Shown here piece by piece: positions 1-24,581 of a DNA stretch of 25,221 nucleotides (within the stretch, counting starts at the first letter, position 1; the number at the start of each line of letters is the position of its first letter). A model generated the notes under the pieces. The model was not told where the DNA came from. It saw only the letters and a program-made list of their open reading frames with translations, and did no database searches. Both the position numbers and the translations under genes were made by a program. This stretch comes from Rhizaria sp. SCN 62-66 (Eukaryota): contig MEDY01000080.1 in assembly GCA_001724265.1 (NCBI GenBank), positions 62,001 through 87,221 on the forward strand, in the 5' to 3' direction.

Positions 1-66
1 TTGCTGTTGCGCACAGACGTGAGGCGCTTACCGCTGCCGCTGCCGCTGCTGTTGCTGTTGTTGTTC

Positions 67-98
<32 letters not shown>

Positions 99-818
99 AG
101 CGGGGGGCGTGGAGGGCTGTGAGGTCGCGCTGCCCTTCTTGGTGTTGCTGTTGTTGCGCTTACCGGCGTTCTGCTGAGCCTGCGCCTGAGCCTGGGCCTC
201 AGCTGCAGCGGCAGCGGCGGCAGCAGCGTCGGCCGCGGCTTTAGCCTTAGCAGCAGCGGCTTCAGCAGCAGCCTCAGTCTCGGCCTCGGCAGCAGCCTTA
301 GCGGCAGCGGCCTCCGCAGCAGCAGCAGCAGCAGCAGCAGCAGCGCCGTCATCGTTGCTCTCAGACGCCGCCTCGTCAGCACCAACCGCAGTCGCATCAC
401 TGCGACCGTTCTGCTCCTGCTCCTGTTCGGCTTCACTGTCACTCACAGCGTCGTCATCGTCATCGTCATCGTCGTCATCGTCATCAACGCCGTCGTCGTC
501 GTCGTCGTCGAGGTCGTCGCTCGACTCAGAGCCCTGCCGACTGCCACCGGCTTCGGCGCCGCCGCTGCCCCTGTTGCCGTTGCCGATGTCACCGCCGTCG
601 TCGCTCTCGCTGTCGCTGGCCTGCAAGAACGTGTGGGTCATGCGGCCCCCCGCCCCGCCCATAGTAGCGCCCGCGCTCGCGCCACCGCGCCGATTGCGCA
701 GCCCGCCGCCAGCCAGCACAGCCACCGGCGGCGCGCGCCGGCCGGGGGGCCCGCGGACCTCCTGCCAGGGCGCCTCGGCCGGCGGTGGCGTCGGCGTCGG
801 CGACAGCACCGCCCCTCT

Positions 819-875
<57 letters not shown>

Positions 876-3800
876 TGCAGCCAGCGCGGGGGCCGGGGTG
901 CCCGAGGCCGAGAGGGGCGGCAGCGGCGACGGCAGCCGCGTCGGGGCTGGGATCGTCGTCCCCGCCGTCGCCGTCGCGCCGCCCGCCGCTCTCGCGCTGT
1001 TCCCGGCCGCAGCGTTGGCGCCGGCGTTGGTCGAGTTGGTGCCCGCTCTGGCAGGGGCCTTGTTGGGGGACGTGGCCGACACCGTCGTGACCGTGTGCGC
1101 GCGCGCCAACTGCGCCGCAGCGGCACCGCTGTTCGCCTGCTGAGAGTGTGGTGACAGCTGAGACTGAGACTGAGACTGCGAGGGGCCGGCGTTCGCAGCG
1201 GCGGGGGCGCGGGCGCCGGCGACGGCAGAGACCGAGGCGGCCACGGTGGCGGCGGCAGTCAGCGCGGGCGTGTGGCTGCGGGAGGACGCGACGTCGCGCC
1301 GGTCCTTGCCGCTCACGTTGCTGTTGGCGATGTTGCCGTCTTTGCGCTCGCCCCCGCGCACTCGGTCGGCCGCAGTCGCAGCGCCAGCGCCGGGTGCGGG
1401 CGTGGTCGCGGTCGGGGGCGGGGGCCCCGCCGCCGCAGAGGAGGCGGCGGCCGCTGCGGTGGGTGCGGAGGCCTTGAGGCCGGGGTTGGTCCTGGTCCGC
1501 ACCGGCCGCCCTGCCGCGCCCGCAGCGGCCGCAGCAGAGTTCGCACCATTGCCAGCGCCGCTGTTGTTCGATGCGACCGCGGCGGCGATGACCGCGGCCG
1601 CGGTGGGCGCACCCGCCCGCACGGTCCCAGCGGCGGCGCCGGAGCCCGGGGCTGCGCCGGCGCCGGCGGCGGGCAGCGGGGGCGTGGGGGCGGCGGCGGG
1701 CGGGGGCGACAGTACGGCGCGCACGTAAGCCGGCAGCGCGCTGGGGTTAGCGTAGGCCGCCGGGGTGCCCGCAGGGCGCTTCACTGCGCCGCCACCTGCA
1801 CCGCCACCGCCACCTCCACCAGCAGCGGCGGCCGCGGCGGAGGCTACGGCGGCGGCCGCGGCGGCGGCCGCGGCAGCGGCGGTGCCGGGGCCCGGGGTGA
1901 TCGTGGTCACCGAGGCGCCCGAGGTCGTGTACACCGCCTTGGGCGGGTTCACTGGCGCAGCCGCGCCGCCCTGGCCGGAGCCGGCGGACGCACCGGGCGC
2001 CGGGGAGGCCGTATGGGTCAGCCCCCCGTGGCGGCCGCCGCGCTGGCCGATCTGCGACTGCGCATGCGCCTGCTGGCCCTGCTGCTGTTGCTGCCCTTGC
2101 ATGAGCAGACCGGACGACGAGGGCACCACGACGACGCCGCGCCGGCCCTGCAGCGAGCCGGCGGTCACCGCGCCGCTGCCCAAGTGTGCGTGGCCGGCGC
2201 CGATGCCGTCGCCGGTGTGCTGCGCGGTCTGAGTGGTCATCGAGCGGCGGGGCGCGCCGGCTACCGCGCCGCCGCTGCCGCCGCTATGGGCGTGGTGGCC
2301 GAGGGTCGAGTAGCTGCCGCCGCCGCCCACGACGACGCTGCTACTGCTGCTGCTGCTGTTGTTGTTGAGACTGCTCTCAGCCGATGCGGAACCCGTTGCG
2401 GAGCCGGCGGCCGAGCTGGCGCTGGAGACCGAGCCTCCGCCGGTACCGGCGTTGCCGCCCGCCCCAGCAGCCGCCGCCGTGGCCGTGTTGTTGGCGGCGG
2501 GCGTGGGGCTGGGCGCGGGGCCCGGGGCCGGCGAGGCGGCGCCCGCGAAAGGCAGGAACACGCGGGCCGTGGGGTTGAGCGCGCGCACCGCATTGCTGCT
2601 GCTGCTGCTGCTGTTGCTGTTGCTGTTGTTGCTGCTGGTGCTGTGGGTGCCGTTGTAGAGGGCGGCGGCGGCGGCGGCGGCAGCCTCGGGGTCGTAGGTC
2701 CCCGGCTCGAACACGCCGGGCGCGTCCATCAACGCAGCAGCAGCGGCGGCGGCGGCAGCGGCGGCGGCAGCGGCGGAGGCGTTGGGGTTGGGCTCGAAGG
2801 CGGCGGCGTCGATGACCGAGGAGACGGCGGCCGTGGGGGCCACGGGCGCGAACAGCGCGGCGTCGGGCGCGGTGCCCGCGGCAGAGGCAAAGGAAAAGGC
2901 CTGCAGAGACACCATGTGGGGGGGCACGGAGCCCATCGGCAGCGCCGAAGACAGACCGACACCGGTCAGGCCGGTGCCAGTCAAGCCAGTGCCAGTCAGG
3001 CCGGTGCCGGAGAGCGGCGCGGCGAGCGCGGGGGAAGCCGAGGTGGAGCGGATGTGATCAAACGCCGCCGCGCTGGCCTCGTAGCCACCAACGCCGACAC
3101 CGACATGACTGTGGCCATGAGTGTGGTGCATGCTGTGATGGCCGTGCACAGCGTGGTGGTGGTGGCTATGCATCACGCCGACGCCGACGCCGTAGCCGCC
3201 CGCGGCGTCAAACGCGGCCGCGTCGAAGGCGGCCGCAGAATCAAACGCCGAGGAGCCGGCGGCGGCGTCAAACGGGGAGCCCAGTCTGGAGACGCCGCCG
3301 CCGCCGCCAGGCGCGGGCGCGGGGCCGGCCGGGCCTGAGTGCGGCCCAGTGCCAGCGCCAGCGCCAGTGCCCGCGCCTGCGGTGTCTGTCAGGGCGCCGC
3401 TGGGGACGGCGTGGTCGCGGGGGGTGGCGGCGCCGGAGGGAATGCCGCCGTCGCCGCCGCCGTTGCCGCCGTTGATGCAGTTGTTGTTGTTGTTGTTGTT
3501 TTGCATGGAGAGCGCGAGCGCTGCCACTGAGGACGCGTCCGCCGCCGCAGAGGACGCCGGGGAAGGCGCTGGCACTGGCACCACGGGCACCGGCCCCCAC
3601 GAGTCAGCGCCAGCGCCGGGCATGCCGCCGCTCATGGAGGACAGGGAGTCGAAGCTGAGGCCGCCGACGCCGACGCCGACGCCCATGTGGTGGCCGTGGC
3701 CGTGTCTGTGCGCGTGATTGTGGGCAGCGGAGAGACCAAGGGCGCCGGGGCCCATCATGTGGTGGTGGCCGAGGCCCCCAGTCATGCCTCCAGTCATTCC

Positions 3801-4628
3801 ACTGGACATACCGCTCGACATCGTGCTGGACATGCCGGTGTAGTTGCCGACGCCGACGCCGACGCCGAGGCCAGAGCCGAAGCCGGAGCCTCCCAAGCCG
3901 TTGGGGCCGCCGAGGCCATTCGGGCCGACGCCGAGGTTGAAGCTGCCAGCAGTGAGACCGCCCAGCGCAGAGCCGCCCAGTCCTGAGCCAAGGCCGGCGC
4001 CAGCGAGTCCAGAGCCGCCGACTCCGAGCGCGGAGCTGCCCAGCGCAGAACCGCCCAGCGCGGTGTTGCTGAGTGCTGCTAACCCGCCGTGGCCGTGGTC
4101 GGTGGGGCGCGCGGGCCGGAGCGCGGCGGGGGAAGACAGATGGCCCGACGACTCGTCAAAGCCGTACGGGAGGAAGTAGCCCTGGCCGTGGCCGTGGCCG
4201 TGCCCGCCGTGGGTCGGCGACTGCGCCTGGGAGTGGGCTTGCGAGTGCGTCTGCGACTGCGTCTGCGACTGGGACGCTGCGGCAGCAGCGACTGCGGCGG
4301 CGGCGGCGGCGGCGGCGGCGGCGTGTGCGTTGGCAGCCGCAGCGGCGGCGGCGCTGGTGGTGGCGTCCGCGGGCGAGTGTAGACTGAAGTACGAGACAGG
4401 GGCGACGGGGCCGAAGCCGAACGACGACGCGGTGGTGGCAGCAGGCGCGGCCTCGAGCAGGGGAGACGTGTCGCCGGGCAGGCTGCGGCGCGTGAGCGCG
4501 GGGGAGCCGGGCGCGAGCTGCGGCGTCCCGGGCGCAAGGTGCGGCGTGCCGGGGGCGCGTTGGGGCGTGCCGGGAGCGAGCTGGGGCGAGGGCTGTAGGG
4601 ACCCCACCGCGACTGGTGTGCTCGACAT
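1..4628 (-). CDS. Large low-complexity/disordered protein (>=1542 aa, 3'-partial) with PAM2-like motif
   Basis: Hand translation from ATG 4628 (MSSTPVAVGSLQPSPQLAPGTPQ...) stays open to the window edge, so the ORF track omits it. Contains ALNPTARVFLP (2550-2582), His/Gly-rich tracts, poly-Ala and an acidic DDDD tract. The many + strand ORFs here are antisense shadows. No folded domain recognised. Confidence 0.85.
4497..4580 (-). repeat. Four 21-bp coding repeats encoding (L/R)APG(T/S)P(Q/H/A)
   Basis: Translation LAPGTPQ RAPGTPH LAPGTPQ LAPGSPA at residues 17-44 of the left-edge gene. Confidence 0.85.
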
Positions 4629-5500
4629 GGCCCTGAGAAGCGCCGGACCAGGGGGCAAGAAAAAGACGGAAAGGGGGCTGTGCGCAGAAAACGGGTGGTA
4701 AATAAGCAGTGGGCCAGAAGTGAGTGGTCGGATTCCTATTATGAGGATTCGTTGACACGCGGGAGTGGAATTGAAAAGATCGGACAAGGCTTAGTTTGCG
4801 ATTCGTGGTTGGGGAATAAGAATTGAATTGCCACGGGCTCACTTCGAGACAGAGAGACAAAAATAGTTCGGAGAGCTTTAGACCACAAATAATGACATGG
4901 AATTGTGCGAAAAGCATGCAAAGTGAGATCTCTGGGTGCCCGTGAACAAAGCCTAATAAGCCCAGCCGCCAACGGCGTGTGGTACATTACGGGACCTCAC
5001 AGAATGCGCCGCCCGACTCGTGGCGCAACAAAATTTAACAACAGTGGCCAACAGAGTCGCAAATGCCCAGCTCTATGTTGTTAGAAGCACGCGTTGCGAT
5101 TCTGGCGCGCATTGCTTACAATTGCGTGGTCATGCCCGACCGACAGCATCTCTGTCAGCGCGGACCGTGGGCGCCAGTTCGTAGGTTTGCTTGCTCTATG
5201 AAACTGACCAAAAGACCATAATTTCGGAACAAACGAGTCTCTATCGCTTTGTAATTTTGCTATATTATGAATCGTGTTTGGGTGTGTATTATTATTTATG
5301 ATTATTGCGATATGACGATCAGGGGCCGTGCATTCCTTGGTTTTCTTCATTGCAACAAGACCGTTTCTCACACATGGTTCTCGTAGTTTCGGTGCAGTGT
5401 CGGCTTGCCCGTATGATCTAAGTTCACCAAATAGTCCCGAAATCTCACCAGTCTTCCTTTCTGTCCACTTTCTCGTCCTCACTTAACTCGTGCTAAGTCT

Positions 5501-6719: not shown

Positions 6720-7287
6720 ATGGGGAACAGCTCGAGCACTTCGCGTCCAGCTCCCAAGGGCAAGTCAGCTGATTGGGAAGAGGCCTACGACCCCTGCAAA
6801 TCATACGTACGTCAAAACCACCTTATTTAGGTCCATGGTGCTATTATATTTATGTTTTTGCTCACCATGCCTGCTTTTTCCTGCTTTTCCCCCTACAGGG
6901 CTGCCGTCTGCAGCAATGCTACGTGGTGCGTCAAGTCACTTCACTTTCTCAGTCAAACGCCTTTGAATCGCACCACAGTCTCGACTTCGTCATCTCATAC
7001 TTCATACTCGTGTGCCTGCTTATGTTACCATCCCGGAATAGGACTTGCTTGAGCAGTCGCGACGGTCCTCGCGCCCCGTAGACGACAGCGTGTGCAACCC
7101 CCTGCGTCTGGCCCTGGAGCAGTGCCGCACCGAGAAGGGGCTCGCCACACAGCCCGCCGCTGCCACCCAGCCTGCCGCCGCTGTGCAGCCTAATGCAGCG
7201 GGGCAGACGGCAACGTCGACGAATGACAGCGCTGCGCAGGCCTGCTCAGCGACTACAGCGGCGTCTAGCAGTGGCGAGAAGCAGTGA
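6720..7287 (+). CDS. Twin CX9C (CHCH) mitochondrial intermembrane-space protein, CMC4-like, ~119 aa
   Basis: Exons 6720-6806, 6899-6925 and 7042-7287; introns GTACGT..ACAG and GTGCGT..ATAG, both phase 0. Spliced protein has DPCKSY|GCRLQQCYV|DLL...VCNPLRLALEQC, i.e. two CX9C motifs; the first resembles CMC4 DPCQKQACEIQKC. Stop TGA. Confidence 0.7.
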
Positions 7288-7564
7288 TCGATGACACAAT
7301 AGCACTCGCGACACACTGCAAGTTGTTTCCGCGAAGCATGCATCAGACAGATGTCAACAAAGATCTTGTGTATTCGTGTGGTACTTGGCACTATGCGGCA
7401 AGCAACCCTCTTAAAGCTATATAACTGTTCCAATAACGAACAACAAACACTATTTATCAGTCCACTCGCATCATAGCAAGTTCACCACAGCGACGATGGA
7501 AGCACTTTGGCCCCGTCCTATCCAGACAACACGTCGTAGAGTCCTCTTGTCACCCTCGTCGCTA

Positions 7565-8641
7565 TCACGATGAGAAGTCGAACGGTGCATTCAGCGCGTC
7601 CCAGAGCTCGGCGGCCTTGACGGGCCCGACCCCCTGCGTGGCCTCCAGCTCGGCCCTGCTCGCGCGCGCCAGCCGATTCAGCGCGCCCCCGTGCGCGCGC
7701 GCCAGCTCCGCCGCGTCCCCCGCCGTCAGCGCACGCAGCGAGCCCGCCAGCAGCGTCGCCAGGGTTCGCGCGGCGGGCGCGTTCGCGGCGGCGGCCTCTA
7801 CAGCGGCCTCGCCGAGGAATGTGCGGCGCGATACGGGGTCCTGGAGCACGTGCAGCAGCTCCAGGAAGCGCGCCGCCTCGCGCTGCGTCGCCGCGCACAG
7901 CAGCGTGAAGCCGGCGCCGAGCGCCAGCGTAGTAATGAGCGTGACGGTGTCGGCCGCGGCGGCCGCGCCCTCGGGCAGGTCGACGACGAGGACGAGCGCG
8001 CGGACGCGGAAGCCGCCCGCGCGCGCCGTCGCGAGGCGCCGCGGCACGTACTGCGGGTTGCGCAGGTGGAAGCGCAGCGAGAGCACGAGCGCGCACGCCG
8101 ATCCCATTACGAAGTCCGGCCCCAGTCCGTCGGCCAGCTGCCAGGGAACCGCCTGCAGCAGCTCCAGGAAGCGGTTACCCGCCTGGCGCTGCCGGTTCAC
8201 CAGCACGGGCACCCGCGCCAGCCCGGGCGTCTGCAGCCCGCCGCACGTGGGGTGCACCGTGATGGCGGCCGCGGCCGACGGCGGCAGCGCTGCCAGGGCC
8301 TACTGCGCCAGCGTCAGCGACCCCACGGCCACGGATCCAGCGAAGCGGGGGCCCGCGCCGCTCGCGCCGTCGGGGAGGCCCGTGTCGTCGCGGGTGCGCG
8401 CCAGGTGGTCCGCGTAGTCGTCCCAGAAGGCGTCGTTCGCGGCAGCCGCGGCAGCGGCCACGGAGGAGGCGCTAGATGCAGGCGGAGCCGCAGCAGTGGC
8501 GGTTGCAGGAGACTTTGAACTAGCAGCTGCGGGTGACACGATGGGGGCGATGGTCACTGCGGAGGAGCCGGGAGGGCGGCGCGCATAGAGACCGCCGCGG
8601 TTAGGCGCCGTGGAATGTGCTAGGGCCTGTGGAGCGTCCAT
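7565..8641 (-). CDS. ERCC1: DNA excision repair protein ERCC1/Rad10 with one in-frame TAG at 8302-8300
   Basis: ORFs 8300..8641 and 7565..8257 share a frame, separated only by TAG plus 14 sense codons. Central domain VLVNRQRQAGNRFL...VPWQL...PDFVMGSACALVLSLRFHLRNPQYVPRRL matches ERCC1; C-terminal HhH ASRAELEATQGVGPVKAAELWDALNAPF. Stop TGA. Confidence 0.9.
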
Positions 8642-9477
8642 GTGCGCTGGGCAGAGCGAGTAGAGACGAAAGTCCCACTTTCTGAGTTAAGTCACGGGTC
8701 AGGCTTCAGTCCAGATGAAGGGCAATATAGACACTAAAGGAGAGACGTTTTAAAAATGAAACAGTAAGTTGTGTGCTATTTACGAAAATACAATGCATAA
8801 TTCCAACAACGGACGGTGCAGAGCGTGAGAGCTTGGTTCTTAGTTCGTCGAGTGGGCGCCATCTCGACGTTGGCTGGACCGAAAAAACGGGACACGGCAC
8901 TGGCGAAAAGATGGAATCACAAACAGGTCTTGCGGACAGCGTGTGGACATCGCCAGAGGTCATCATTCAACTATAAGACATTCGAGGTATTGTTATGGTT
9001 AAATCGTTTTTTAGCGAGGACCTGGGATCAATGGGCATGTCGCATGTGACCGTCTTCCGAGGCCTGATTGGGCTTCGAGGTAAACAGTCGACTCTCCAGA
9101 AAGCGCGTTTGTTGAGGTCTCAAGATGCCACTTTTGAAACATAACTACCGACATCCACGTAGATCTTGTTTGATTCTTACCGAAAACTCGCGTTTTATCT
9201 TCCCTTGCTTCTATTCCCGCCTCCTGCATAGCCTTCCCGCTCTTCGCTCCCCACCTCGTCACTCGTCGTCGCCTGGCTTTCCCCCCACGGCGCAGCAGTG
9301 ACAGACAGCGAACCAGAACCGTTCCCGGTCCCCGACACTCCTTGCTCTCGTCGCTCAGACGCTGAGGCCCGCTTCACAGAAACAGCAACAGCAGCAGCAG
9401 CATCGCTCTGTTCCCTCGCTCCCACCACACACACACTCCACACCCGTTAACGCTCATTTGAGACTAACCCCACCGCC

Positions 9478-13085: not shown

Positions 13086-13134
13086 TATCGTACAGTACGC
13101 AGGACGCAATATCACAATATCGTACAGTACGCAG
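13086..13134. repeat. 17-bp direct repeat TATCGTACAGTACGCAG downstream of LIG1
   Basis: Exact copies at 13086-13102 and 13118-13134. Confidence 0.85.
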
Positions 13135-16845: not shown

Positions 16846-17001
16846 CGAGGCGCTCGCGCGGGCGACCGGCGAGCCGGTGGCGGACGCGTGAGAGAGCTCT
16901 CGAGCAGCGGAAATAATGCACTTGTTTCCCACCTATACCAACGTATTGGCGAGTTATAATAAGCAACTTCCGCCTTTTGATTGAGCCGAGTCACTGTTAC
17001 T

Positions 17002-19299
17002 ATGGCGTCTCTCAACGCAACGGGCGCGCTCGAGCGCCTGAGCCACTTTCTGCGTAAAGCCGCAAAGCCTGCGAGCGAGGCCGCAGCGCTGATTCCGTCG
17101 CTGCCGCAGCCTGCGATGACCGCCTCGGGGTTTCCGATCCCCAAAATCCCGCGCATCATGGCGCTGGACGTGGGCCGGCGCTACATCGGCGTGGCCGTGG
17201 CCGACCCGTCGACCGAGACGGCGGTCCCGCTCGCCGTGCTTGACCGGCTCCGGCCAGAGGTCGCGGCCACACTGCCACCGCGCGCCGCGCGCGCCCCGCT
17301 TAACGACCCCGAGCTGCGCGCGCGCGGCCCCGCGGACTTCAAGTCATCGGCGGCACTGGCGCAGGAGGTCGCGGCGCTGCGCCTCAAGCACAACATCGTG
17401 GCGACCGTCGTCGGCATGCCCAACGCGCGCACCTTCGACGACAAAGACGTGCCACGCTTCATCATGGACCTCACGGCGCGCCTCCGCGTCGACGGCGCCT
17501 TTGCGCCCGGCGTGGACCCCGCCTTTGACGCGCTCTTCTGGTCCGAGCACCTGTCGACGAGCGAGGCCAAGGCGCGCATGCGCGGCGCCGGTATTGTCGG
17601 CTACATGGCCCAGAAGCGCGCCGGGCTCGACAAGGAGGCCGCCGCCGTCATCCTCTCTGACTTCCTTGCTGAGCTCAACGTCGTTTCGCTGCTTGCTGAC
17701 GCCGACGCCGTCGGGGCCCAGGACACTGACGCTGAGCGCGCGGCCGCCGAGAGCGCCGCCGCGCGGTCCGCGGGCGCTCGCGCGCTGTCGTCCCGACGCG
17801 ACCTCGGCCTGCCCATCGGGCGCGGCTTCTCCGACGCCGAGTTTGAGCGCGCGATGCTGACAGGGCAGCTGGACCTGCCGCCCGAGCTGCTCGCGCGCGG
17901 CCTGACCCCCGCGGAGGCCGAGGCTGAGGTGCGCGCCCACGTCGCGCGCAACCTCTTCTTCCTCGGCGCTCAGGGCCAGGTCTTCGCCTTCGACACCGCG
18001 CTGCCCGTGCTGCGCGCCGCCAACGCGCGCCTCGCCGACTGGCAGTACTACGCCGAGTATCTGCAGCGCGAGCGGCCGCAGCAGTGGGCGCGCCTTAGCG
18101 CCGCCGACCGGGCCCTCGCGTCGCGCAAGGCCGAGCAGCGCCGCGCAGAGCTGGCCGCGCGCGACGCCGCCGCGGCCCGGGCCCTTGCGCTCACGCCGCC
18201 GACGACGATGGCGCTCGTGCACCGCACCGGCGTGCGCTCCGCCAGCGCGGTCGACGCCTTCCCCGCCGCCGCGCTCGACCGGGGCGGGTCGAGTGATGTG
18301 GCTACAACAACTCAGCGCGCTAGCCGCGAGCTACTGCTGCCCAAGCACCTGTACACGCCGGTGCAGGAGTCGATCGACTTCGCGCTAGCAGTAGCCGCGG
18401 GCGCGCCGCCGGCCGCGCTGGCTGCCGAGGTCCGCGCCGCGCGGGCCGCCCACGGCCAGCAGACCGAGGCCGCGCGGGCGGCGCGCGCGCAGCAGCTGCT
18501 CCTACAACAGCAACAGCAACAGCAACAGCAGCAGCTAGAGCAGCCGTGTGAGGGGCAGGAGCAGCATGCCGCGCTCGTGAGGCAGTTGGCTGAGCGCAGG
18601 CGCAGGCTCCGCGGCGAGGCCGAGGTCGGCAGTGCCAGTGCTGACTCAAGCGCTGCCTCAAGCGCTGGCTCGGACTCCGTCACCGGCTCTGGCTCTGGCT
18701 CTGATAATCCAAGCGCCGGCTCTGGCTCTGGCTCTGGCGTCGAGACCGAGGCTGAGGGCGCGGCCAGTCTGGCTGCCCCGCTGGCGCCGCCCTCCCGCCA
18801 CGCTGCCGCGACGACAGCTGCTGCTCATGTCTCCGCGTCGTCAGCAGTCGGCCACAGCCTCAGCCACGGCAGCGGCGGCAGCAGCGGCGGCGCTAGCGTG
18901 CGCGTGGCACCATACGCCTCCCCCGCACTCGCGTACCTCCTCACCCACGCCCCGCATCTGGGAGCCCGCGCTAGCCGTCGTGACGCTGTCCTCCGCGACG
19001 CGTCCCCCGCGGTGCAGCTCGGCCCCGCGGGCGGCGTCGACTCGGTGCTGGGCGGCGTCGGCAAGCCCATCTTCTCCCCGGCCGCGGCGGGAGAGCGCTG
19101 GGTCGAGGCCGAGGAGGCCGCGGCCGCCGTGCGTGCGCGCCTGAGGGCCGCCGTCGCCGACGCCGCGGCTGTGGCGGCCATGAAGCAACGCAAGCGCAAC
19201 AGGCGCGCGCGCGCGGCCGCCGGCGAAGGCGACGGATATGACGACGACGATGATGATGGGTATGGCGCTGCTGAGGGCGGCGCTGCCTACCGCGGCTGA
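17002..19299 (+). CDS. YqgF/RuvX-family RNase H-fold nuclease domain protein with long C-terminal extension, ~765 aa
   Basis: RIMALDVGRRYIGVAVAD, VVGMP, FWSEHLSTSEA and LDKEAAAVILSDFL are the characteristic YqgF blocks; about 530 aa of Ala-rich, polyQ and low-complexity sequence follow. Stop TGA. Confidence 0.85.
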   Translation: MASLNATGALERLSHFLRKAAKPASEAAALIPSLPQPAMTASGFPIPKIPRIMALDVGRRYIGVAVADPSTETAVPLAVLDRLRPEVAATLPPRAARAPLNDPELRARGPADFKSSAALAQEVAALRLKHNIVATVVGMPNARTFDDKDVPRFIMDLTARLRVDGAFAPGVDPAFDALFWSEHLSTSEAKARMRGAGIVGYMAQKRAGLDKEAAAVILSDFLAELNVVSLLADADAVGAQDTDAERAAAESAAARSAGARALSSRRDLGLPIGRGFSDAEFERAMLTGQLDLPPELLARGLTPAEAEAEVRAHVARNLFFLGAQGQVFAFDTALPVLRAANARLADWQYYAEYLQRERPQQWARLSAADRALASRKAEQRRAELAARDAAAARALALTPPTTMALVHRTGVRSASAVDAFPAAALDRGGSSDVATTTQRASRELLLPKHLYTPVQESIDFALAVAAGAPPAALAAEVRAARAAHGQQTEAARAARAQQLLLQQQQQQQQQQLEQPCEGQEQHAALVRQLAERRRRLRGEAEVGSASADSSAASSAGSDSVTGSGSGSDNPSAGSGSGSGVETEAEGAASLAAPLAPPSRHAAATTAAAHVSASSAVGHSLSHGSGGSSGGASVRVAPYASPALAYLLTHAPHLGARASRRDAVLRDASPAVQLGPAGGVDSVLGGVGKPIFSPAAAGERWVEAEEAAAAVRARLRAAVADAAAVAAMKQRKRNRRARAAAGEGDGYDDDDDDGYGAAEGGAAYRG

Positions 19300-20942: not shown

Positions 20943-21863
20943 ATGTTTACTTTTCTCACGCGCACCCTGCGCCACATGACGCCTGTCGCGATGGCGGCGG
21001 TGGTGACCTCGGTCGCGACCGTTCAGGAGAACACCGCCGCCTCGAAGCCCGACCAGCCCACCCCGAGCGCCCCCGCTGCGCCCATTATGGCCGCCGCGGC
21101 CGCGCCGTCGTCGTTGTCCAGCCACGCCGCGGGTAAGAACTGCCGCGTCTGTAGCGACGCCCCCAACGCGCTCCAGAGCATGATGAGCTTCTACAACACT
21201 TCCAAGCCCGCTGCGCCTGCCAACACGGCCGCAGCCACGGCCGCTGCGGGCCCTGCTGCTCCCGCTGCCGCTGCGGCGTGGCCGGCCGCTGCGGACGGCT
21301 CCGCCGCGCGCGAGCCGTGTCCGCCGACGTACCGCGAGCTCGGCAACGCGACGTGGCTGTATCTGCACACGATGGCGGCCTACTACCCCGAGGCGCCCAC
21401 GCCCGAGCTGGAGCAGAGCATGCTGCCGTTCATGCGCACGTTCGCGCAGGTGTACCCGTGCGAGTCGTGCCGTGACCACATGCTCGAGTACGTGGAGCAG
21501 CACCCGCCCCAGGCCGCCAACAACGCCGAGCTCTCGCTCTGGCTCTGTCGCTTCCACAACGACGTCAACCTCCAGATCGGAAAGGTACGTGCTCGGTTTA
21601 TTCGACATATCTCGCTAGTATCGCTACTGTTGTGAGCAGATGTCTTAATGTCACACGCTTTAGCTTATGAAACACGTGTATAGTGCTACTTATCTTCAAT
21701 GTCACTCACTTTGTCACTATAATCTTCTTTAATGTTTTGTCTGTTTCTTGTTGTCAATTTGAACACGAACGCCCACACACAACTACAGCCCGCAATGCCT
21801 TGCGACGCCGCGGCCCTCATCCGGCGCTGGCGCGACGGGCCCGAGGACGGGAGCTGCGATTGA
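20943..21863 (+). CDS. ERV1: FAD-linked sulfhydryl oxidase Erv1/ALR, ~238 aa
   Basis: Exons 20943-21584 and 21789-21863; intron GTACGT..ACAG. N-terminal shuttle CRVC, CPPTYRELGNATWLYLHT, active site YPCESC, WLCRFHNDVN..GK|PAMPC, C-terminal RWRDGPEDGSCD. Stop TGA. Several candidate ATGs. Confidence 0.95.
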
Positions 21864-24061: not shown

Positions 24062-24581
24062 TCAAGCGCTGCCCTGCGTCTCGTTCGCACCAGCGACACG
24101 CTCCTCCACGCCTGCGAGAAATATAAAAGAAGCAAGATATACGAATAGATTAGAAGATATAGGTGAGAAAACGTCTGATAAGCAGTGTCTGACAGTCACA
24201 TATCATGTGAGTAGGGTCATAAGCGTATTAAGTGAAAAGAGCGGACACGTACCAGTGGTGAAGGCTTCGAGGTAGTCGACCTGATGTTCGAGGCGGCTCA
24301 GCTTGTGGTTCAGCTGTGCAATCTTGCCGCGCACGTCGTTGTCTAAAAACCGCGATAGTCGAAATAAATATGTATGAGCTATGTTGTGATACCACCAAAT
24401 ATGTCCTAGATAATTCGCGACAGAGAGAAAATACCTGCGAGTCGAGAGTCGAGGACGTACCAAACTTGTTAAGGAAAGCAGCGATCTGCATGATGCTATA
24501 CTGCACGTTCTGGATGAACTCGCGGTTCGCCCAATCTTGAGCAACAATGCGAACCTCCTGGTCGCTCATTTGAGAAGACAT
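24062..24581 (-). CDS. BRK1: BRICK1/HSPC300, SCAR/WAVE complex subunit, ~86 aa
   Basis: Exons 24581-24461, 24342-24253 and 24111-24062 (both donors GTACGT, phase 1). Spliced QDWANREFIQNVQYSIMQIAAFLNKFDNDVRGKIAQLNHKLSRLEHQVDYLEA matches BRK1. Stop TGA. Confidence 0.93.

Follow-up and report, generated by a model that had tools for sequence, protein, structure and literature searches.

The ERCC1 gene of an uncultured eukaryote carries an in-frame TAG within an otherwise intact reading frame. Most probably the TAG is a genuine premature stop in the standard code, created by a nonsense change of one base that became fixed in the linker of a single-exon gene. This reading is supported by the occurrence of the TAG in several assemblies, by a frame that is ancestral on both sides of it, by the uninterrupted frame of a relative and by the lack of an intron or readthrough signal. 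If it is a plain nonsense codon, the finding is an ordinary one: ERCC1 would then have been lost or weakened recently in a single clonal protist from the environment, and the case would serve mainly as a caution against inferring a new code from one in-frame stop.

The ERCC1 locus

ERCC1 lies on the minus strand of the window, by which we mean the whole 25,221-nt stretch of DNA that was analysed (Table 1). Around the TAG the minus strand reads ...ACG CTG GCG CAG TAG GCC CTG GCA GCG CTG CCG..., and, as the earlier note states, 113 codons stand 5′ of the TAG; 244 codons plus a TGA stand 3′ of it in one frame. An in-frame TAA at 8689 precedes the ATG, and a second stop (TAG 7564..7562) directly follows the terminal TGA. 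The Pfam Rad10/ERCC1 domain (PF03834; E 3e-19, 69 bits versus a cutoff of 28.1) is located wholly 3′ of the TAG, and residues 93-293 of the 297 in human ERCC1 align with the post-TAG part (E 8e-20). The C-terminal (HhH)2 region is colinear with that of solved human ERCC1, and the Pfam HHH match taken alone is under its cutoff (16.5 versus 24). Both hallmarks of an ERCC1 protein, the central domain and the (HhH)2 region, are thus present in a frame that the TAG interrupts under the standard code. Two further claims of the earlier note also stand: the next in-frame ATG (FVMG) is within the Rad10/ERCC1 domain, and the TAG occupies a non-conserved linker, a variable segment in which the relative described below has a different codon. 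An antisense ORF (7437..8417, plus strand) was considered as a gene and rejected (no Pfam match; GC1 < GC2).

Table 1 Features of the ERCC1 locus and its neighbours, in window positions.
Feature	Position	Strand	Remarks
In-frame TAG, codon 114 of the ERCC1 frame	8300..8302	-	Triplet shared with L001:107-109 and the X3 contig
Single-exon ERCC1 gene	7565..8641	-	ATG 8641 to TGA 7567..7565; collinear with P0002
N-terminal 113 codons, low-complexity Ala/Ser/Pro	8303..8641	-	Conserved motif FWDDYADHLARTRD; catalogued ORF P0123
Post-TAG 244 codons	7568..8299	-	Conserved linker end (LAALP...ITVHP), central Rad10 domain, C-terminal HhH2 region
Rad10/ERCC1 central domain	7853..8200	-	Residues 148-263 if the TAG is read through; match to profile positions 3-114 of 115, E 7e-19
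CTG two codons past the TAG	8294..8296	-	Context GCC CTG G; putative near-cognate start for N-truncated ERCC1
ORF of at least 1,595 codons running off the window	3-4787	-	74-83% GC; no Pfam match in either half
Small three-coding-exon gene, MGN-start protein with two Cx9C motifs (CHCH-like)	6720-7287	+	No Pfam match; TGA 7285
772-aa protein	16981-19299	+	Sole Pfam match RuvX/YqgF Holliday-junction-resolvase-like domain, E 7.5e-16
Erv1/ALR sulfhydryl oxidase	20943-21863	+	One intron: donor 21585, exon 2 from 21789
Three-exon BRK1/HSPC300 (SCAR/WAVE complex subunit)	24062-24581	-	About 46-50% GC; TGA 24064..24062
5′ splice sites of ten introns	6645, 6807, 6927, 9532, 14187, 21585, 23181, 23526, 24252, 24460		DNA ligase I 1; BRK1 2; BCAS2 2; Erv1/ALR 1; twin-Cx9C gene 3; syntaxin 1 (presumed from a donor upstream of the ORF)

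Host and genomic setting

The window is metagenome-derived, and its sequence is present in runs from bioreactors and wastewater. These environments harbour the host, an uncultured eukaryote that looks clonal and has a compact genome with extreme GC3. Chytrid fungi and animals supply the best named matches of its DNA ligase I (LIG1), with 46-51% identity, and other eukaryotic groups are absent among the matches listed. Composition is two-tiered, with most exons at 70-83% GC (GC3 0.85-0.96) and introns and spacers at 40-50%; BRK1, BCAS2 exon 1 and exons 1-2 of the Cx9C gene reach only about 45-55% GC. Nine of the ten introns could be traced to their acceptor (75-253 nt). Their 5′ splice sites are unusually uniform, with GTACG in 8 of 10 introns and GTATG and GTGCG in the other two.

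Several neighbouring genes merit comment. BRK1 was missed by the ORF listing, and its exon 1 matches BRICK1 chain 3p8c_E (E 5e-6). Erv1/ALR has a TGA within its intron, at 21633, and terminates at 21861, where the TGA coincides with the exact C-terminus of solved ALR. The RuvX/YqgF-like domain of the 772-aa protein is found in an unusual setting in a eukaryote, and the spacer that follows DNA ligase I contains two copies of the sequence CGTACAGTACGCAG, 32 nt apart (13093-13127).

Conservation and codon bias across the TAG

Only one ERCC1 relative exceeds 41% identity among 1.84 billion representative proteins, and the comparison made here rests on that one protein (P0002, 360 aa). It is encoded on a 1.4-kb metagenome contig (L002) by one uninterrupted ORF (54..1136) ending in TAA, is 62% identical to the post-TAG part and, in the HMMER alignment, matches the ERCC1 frame from residue 25 to the end. 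With the N-terminal piece alone, the motif given in Table 1 matches YWDEYEQFLAATRD, residues 71-86 of P0002 (E 2e-4). Inside the variable linker L002 has GAC (Asp) opposite the TAG, and the 17 residues that follow the TAG (LAALP...ITVHP) are conserved again with the relative. Because L002 is uninterrupted and has GAC at this site, the ancestral state would be a sense codon in a variable linker.

Codon bias agrees on both sides of the TAG. GC3 in successive 50-codon bins of ERCC1 is 0.58, 0.88, 0.94, 0.90, 0.96, 0.90 and 0.96; it remains at 0.88-0.94 from codon 51 across the TAG, with coding bias unbroken, and three neighbouring genes likewise start with a low bin. An open upstream frame would by itself mean no more than chance, because the DNA is 75% GC; it is homology and codon bias that make this one meaningful. 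Judged by these two lines of sequence comparison, the 113 codons 5′ of the TAG are ancestral ERCC1 coding sequence, and to that extent the alternative of a plain upstream ORF, raised in the earlier note, fails.

A probable premature stop in the linker

In the reading that we favour, a single substitution would have created UAG in a dispensable, non-conserved linker, and this nonsense substitution would have become fixed in a clonal-looking lineage whose contigs lack variation. Mutational supply would be large, because TAG is one substitution away for 859 of the 5,591 codons tallied (15%). We infer that the lesion is recent, since the gene has kept its codon bias and acquired no further defect, and since the sampled contigs are invariant. 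The gene would be either newly inactivated or still the source of a little functional protein. Such residual protein might arise by basal near-cognate readthrough of the UAG, or by initiation just downstream, at CTG 8296..8294 or GTG 8257..8255; a protein initiated there would keep all homology to human residues 93-293, because that homology is wholly 3′ of the TAG. Identical contigs from a polyA RNA library cover 7520-7729 and 7942-8180, and the ERCC1 locus may be expressed, DNA carry-over being possible for these contigs.

Some observations run counter to a nonsense codon. None of 11 terminators in the window is TAG, no second lesion is found, the RNA contigs leave room for continued expression, and from the TAG onward, as across it, GC3 keeps to 0.88-0.96. 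A sole-allele stop in a core repair gene moreover needs either dispensability of the product or a means of rescue.

UAG as a possible sense codon

The earlier note had put forward UAG as a rare sense codon. In its general form this explanation holds that UAG stands for an amino acid throughout the host, by a UAG-only reassignment or an efficient tRNA-CUA suppressor with extremely rare use, and that TAA and TGA are stops; we consider it unlikely. Consistent with it, the ERCC1 frame, its codon bias and its homology continue through the TAG, which is the sole allele in all assemblies seen, and the terminators inside the window comprise 8 TGA, 3 TAA and no TAG (11 of 12 genes). TAA and TGA are genuine stops, the syntaxin TAA falling just past the membrane anchor and the Erv1 TGA exactly at the ALR C-terminus. 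The absence of TAG terminators is mildly favourable and, at n = 11, not significant (P 0.09-0.04 at a TAG share of 20-25%).

UAG-only nuclear codes do exist, as the earlier note had stated. Two papers describe them in the rhizarian exLh (UAG=Leu; 384 internal UAGs in 71 genes) and in Iotanema spirale (UAG=Gln; 204 internal UAGs in 126 genes) (PMC5304391), and in phyllopharyngean ciliates (UAG=Leu or Gln; at least one UAG in 78-91% of genes) (PMC11687900). The window differs sharply in usage. The claim that this is the only in-frame TAG is borne out, with one internal stop in 5,591 codon positions (10 genes, 11 segments), a tally that omits BRK1, the Cx9C gene, BCAS2 exons 1-2 and Erv1 exon 2 and includes 17 Erv1 intronic codons; inspected by eye, the omitted small exons contain no stop. 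Where a UAG-only code has internal UAGs in a large share of genes, only one of the 12 genes annotated in this 25-kb window has one, 20-60 times fewer than in any documented case. At the published UAG-only rates, the probability of finding at most one such gene in 12 is 5e-7 or less.

Sense use of UAG fits, therefore, only if usage is near zero, and a reassignment with near-zero usage was not found in the available portions of the literature on UAG-only codes. The site is non-conserved with GAC in the relative, so that no amino acid can be inferred, and the 360 codons of the relative contain no TAG. A tRNA scan found no tRNA gene in the window, an Rfam scan of the window was also empty, and the gene for eRF1 lies elsewhere in the genome. 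Outside the window, no exact match to an ERCC1 40-mer was present in genome_contigs or viral_contigs, an alignment search with ERCC1 found no relative in genome_contigs, and a metagenome scan yielded only L002 and L001, a 2.3-kb contig of the same locus.

It is doubtful that an unsampled eukaryotic lineage from wastewater reactors gives UAG an amino-acid meaning, at a frequency near one per 5,000 codons, and retains UAA and UGA as stops. Such a lineage would represent an early and almost empty phase of stop-codon capture, one not known from any nuclear genome. If true, this code would join a very small number of UAG-only nuclear codes, none of the others with usage near zero, and would open codon capture in the course of reassignment to direct study.

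N-truncated protein and programmed readthrough as possible alternatives

ERCC1 might work in an N-truncated form, made from a near-cognate start just past the TAG or from a shorter transcript, with the 113-codon piece as a leftover upstream ORF; we regard this as improbable. The N-terminal ~90 residues of human ERCC1 have been reported as dispensable. Everything that aligns with the solved human protein (residues 93-293) is 3′ of the TAG, and the CTG at 8296..8294 stands in the context GCC CTG G and is followed by the GTG at 8257..8255. Against these points, there is no in-frame ATG before the domain, and ribosomes would need to bypass two ATGs, the one at 8641 and another, out of frame, within the first exon. 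Conservation of the N-terminal motif with the relative implies, in addition, that this part was functional until recently. A statement that the N-terminus of ERCC1 is dispensable was not found in the available portion of one review (PMC6320978).

Gene-specific programmed readthrough of the UAG, giving full-length ERCC1, is very unlikely, although an open, conserved frame flanks the TAG on either side. Known forms of programmed UAG readthrough include the TMV type, with UAG-CARYYA, and the retroviral type, with UAG-G plus a pseudoknot. The 3′ context here is UAG-GCC-CUG, which begins with G and is neither CARYYA, as the earlier note had remarked, nor CUAG. Downstream RNA structure above background was not detected: the 111 nt from the TAG are less stable than shuffled sequence (z = +2.1 versus shuffles), with a fold that 199 of 200 shuffles equal or exceed in stability. 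Neither a stimulatory context nor a stimulatory structure is therefore seen, and the stop is absent from L002 and hence not conserved in the orthologue compared (one relative).

Recurrence of the TAG across assemblies

The TAG is genuine and does not go back to an isolated base-call error. L001, a separate contig of 2,303 nt from a metagenome (JGI), is identical to the window, and so, over 8118-8408, is a 291-nt Logan contig (0 differences) from run X3, which belongs to another study and another year. Six contigs have been catalogued with the 113-aa ORF that the TAG terminates (P0123), and 7, the longest of 305 kb, with the 230-aa post-TAG ORF (P0271). Sequence variation at the locus is absent from the contigs compared with the window. 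In a HMMER search of 1.84 billion representative proteins, matches with E up to 1e-30 are the two halves (P0001, P0123) and P0002 only, and no full-length ERCC1 allele without the stop was found. In the polyA RNA run X7 and in runs X4 and X5 no contig of the organism itself extends over 8300; the short pieces from these runs at 8300 have 3-4 mismatches and are from other organisms.

It is thus highly improbable that the TAG stems from a mistake made repeatedly in sequencing or assembly, or that it marks only one haplotype where the site is heterozygous, and the base-call error that the earlier note had listed as an alternative is unlikely. Such an origin would be helped by the nature of the evidence, which consists of assembled contigs that drop minority variants, with a depth of only about 5 in X3; the identical base nonetheless appears in the JGI contig, in the Logan contig of the other study and in the 6-7 catalogued contigs, and no full-length alternative allele exists among the 1.84 billion representatives.

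As a side observation, L001 and the X3 contig are independent assemblies that both break at 8408. The break adjoins a GCC/GCG-rich stretch (8408-8428), which draws short mismatched pieces of other organisms.

A possible intron or RNA editing

Least credible of all is that the mRNA loses the TAG through RNA editing or through the splicing of a short, GC-rich intron of unconventional type: 38 frame-preserving GT..AG spans include the TAG, and two end exactly there (a 33-nt GTGGCC...CAGTAG, 8332..8300, and a 27-nt GTGGGG...TAG, 8326..8300), one of which holds CTGAC, but the GTs of the 38 candidate spans are ordinary Val codons that occur by chance, and the relative L002 has no intron here. Each of the ten introns identified in the window combines a GT[AG][CT]G donor with an AT-rich body. 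A pattern search found no GT[AG][CT]G or GT[AG]AG donor between 8641 and 8302, and that segment is 76% GC; on both the missing donor and the exon-like GC content the earlier note was right. Its intron alternative is unlikely on the same grounds, with no donor of the host pattern and a GC-rich region set against AT-rich introns.

Comparison with known systems

As in programmed UAG readthrough, the ERCC1 UAG is followed by G and by a downstream frame that is open and functional; unlike in that system, CARYYA is lacking, no structure rises above shuffled sequence and the stop is absent in the relative. The resemblance to the UAG-only codes of exLh, Iotanema and the phyllopharyngeans lies in an internal UAG, in termination by UAA and UGA and in the absence of any sampled gene ending in UAG. 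In those lineages internal UAGs number 1.6-5.4 per gene, or occur in 78-91% of genes, and they occupy conserved Leu or Gln positions; some of the lineages have tRNA-CUA genes. Here, by contrast, one gene in 12 has an internal UAG, at one non-conserved site.

The remaining comparison is with nonsense alleles and young unitary pseudogenes. ERCC1 is unlike typical members of this class in that the stop is the sole allele in every assembly seen and falls in a core repair gene. It is like them in having one stop, near to common codons and in a non-conserved segment, in a gene that is otherwise intact and whose nearest orthologue is uninterrupted.
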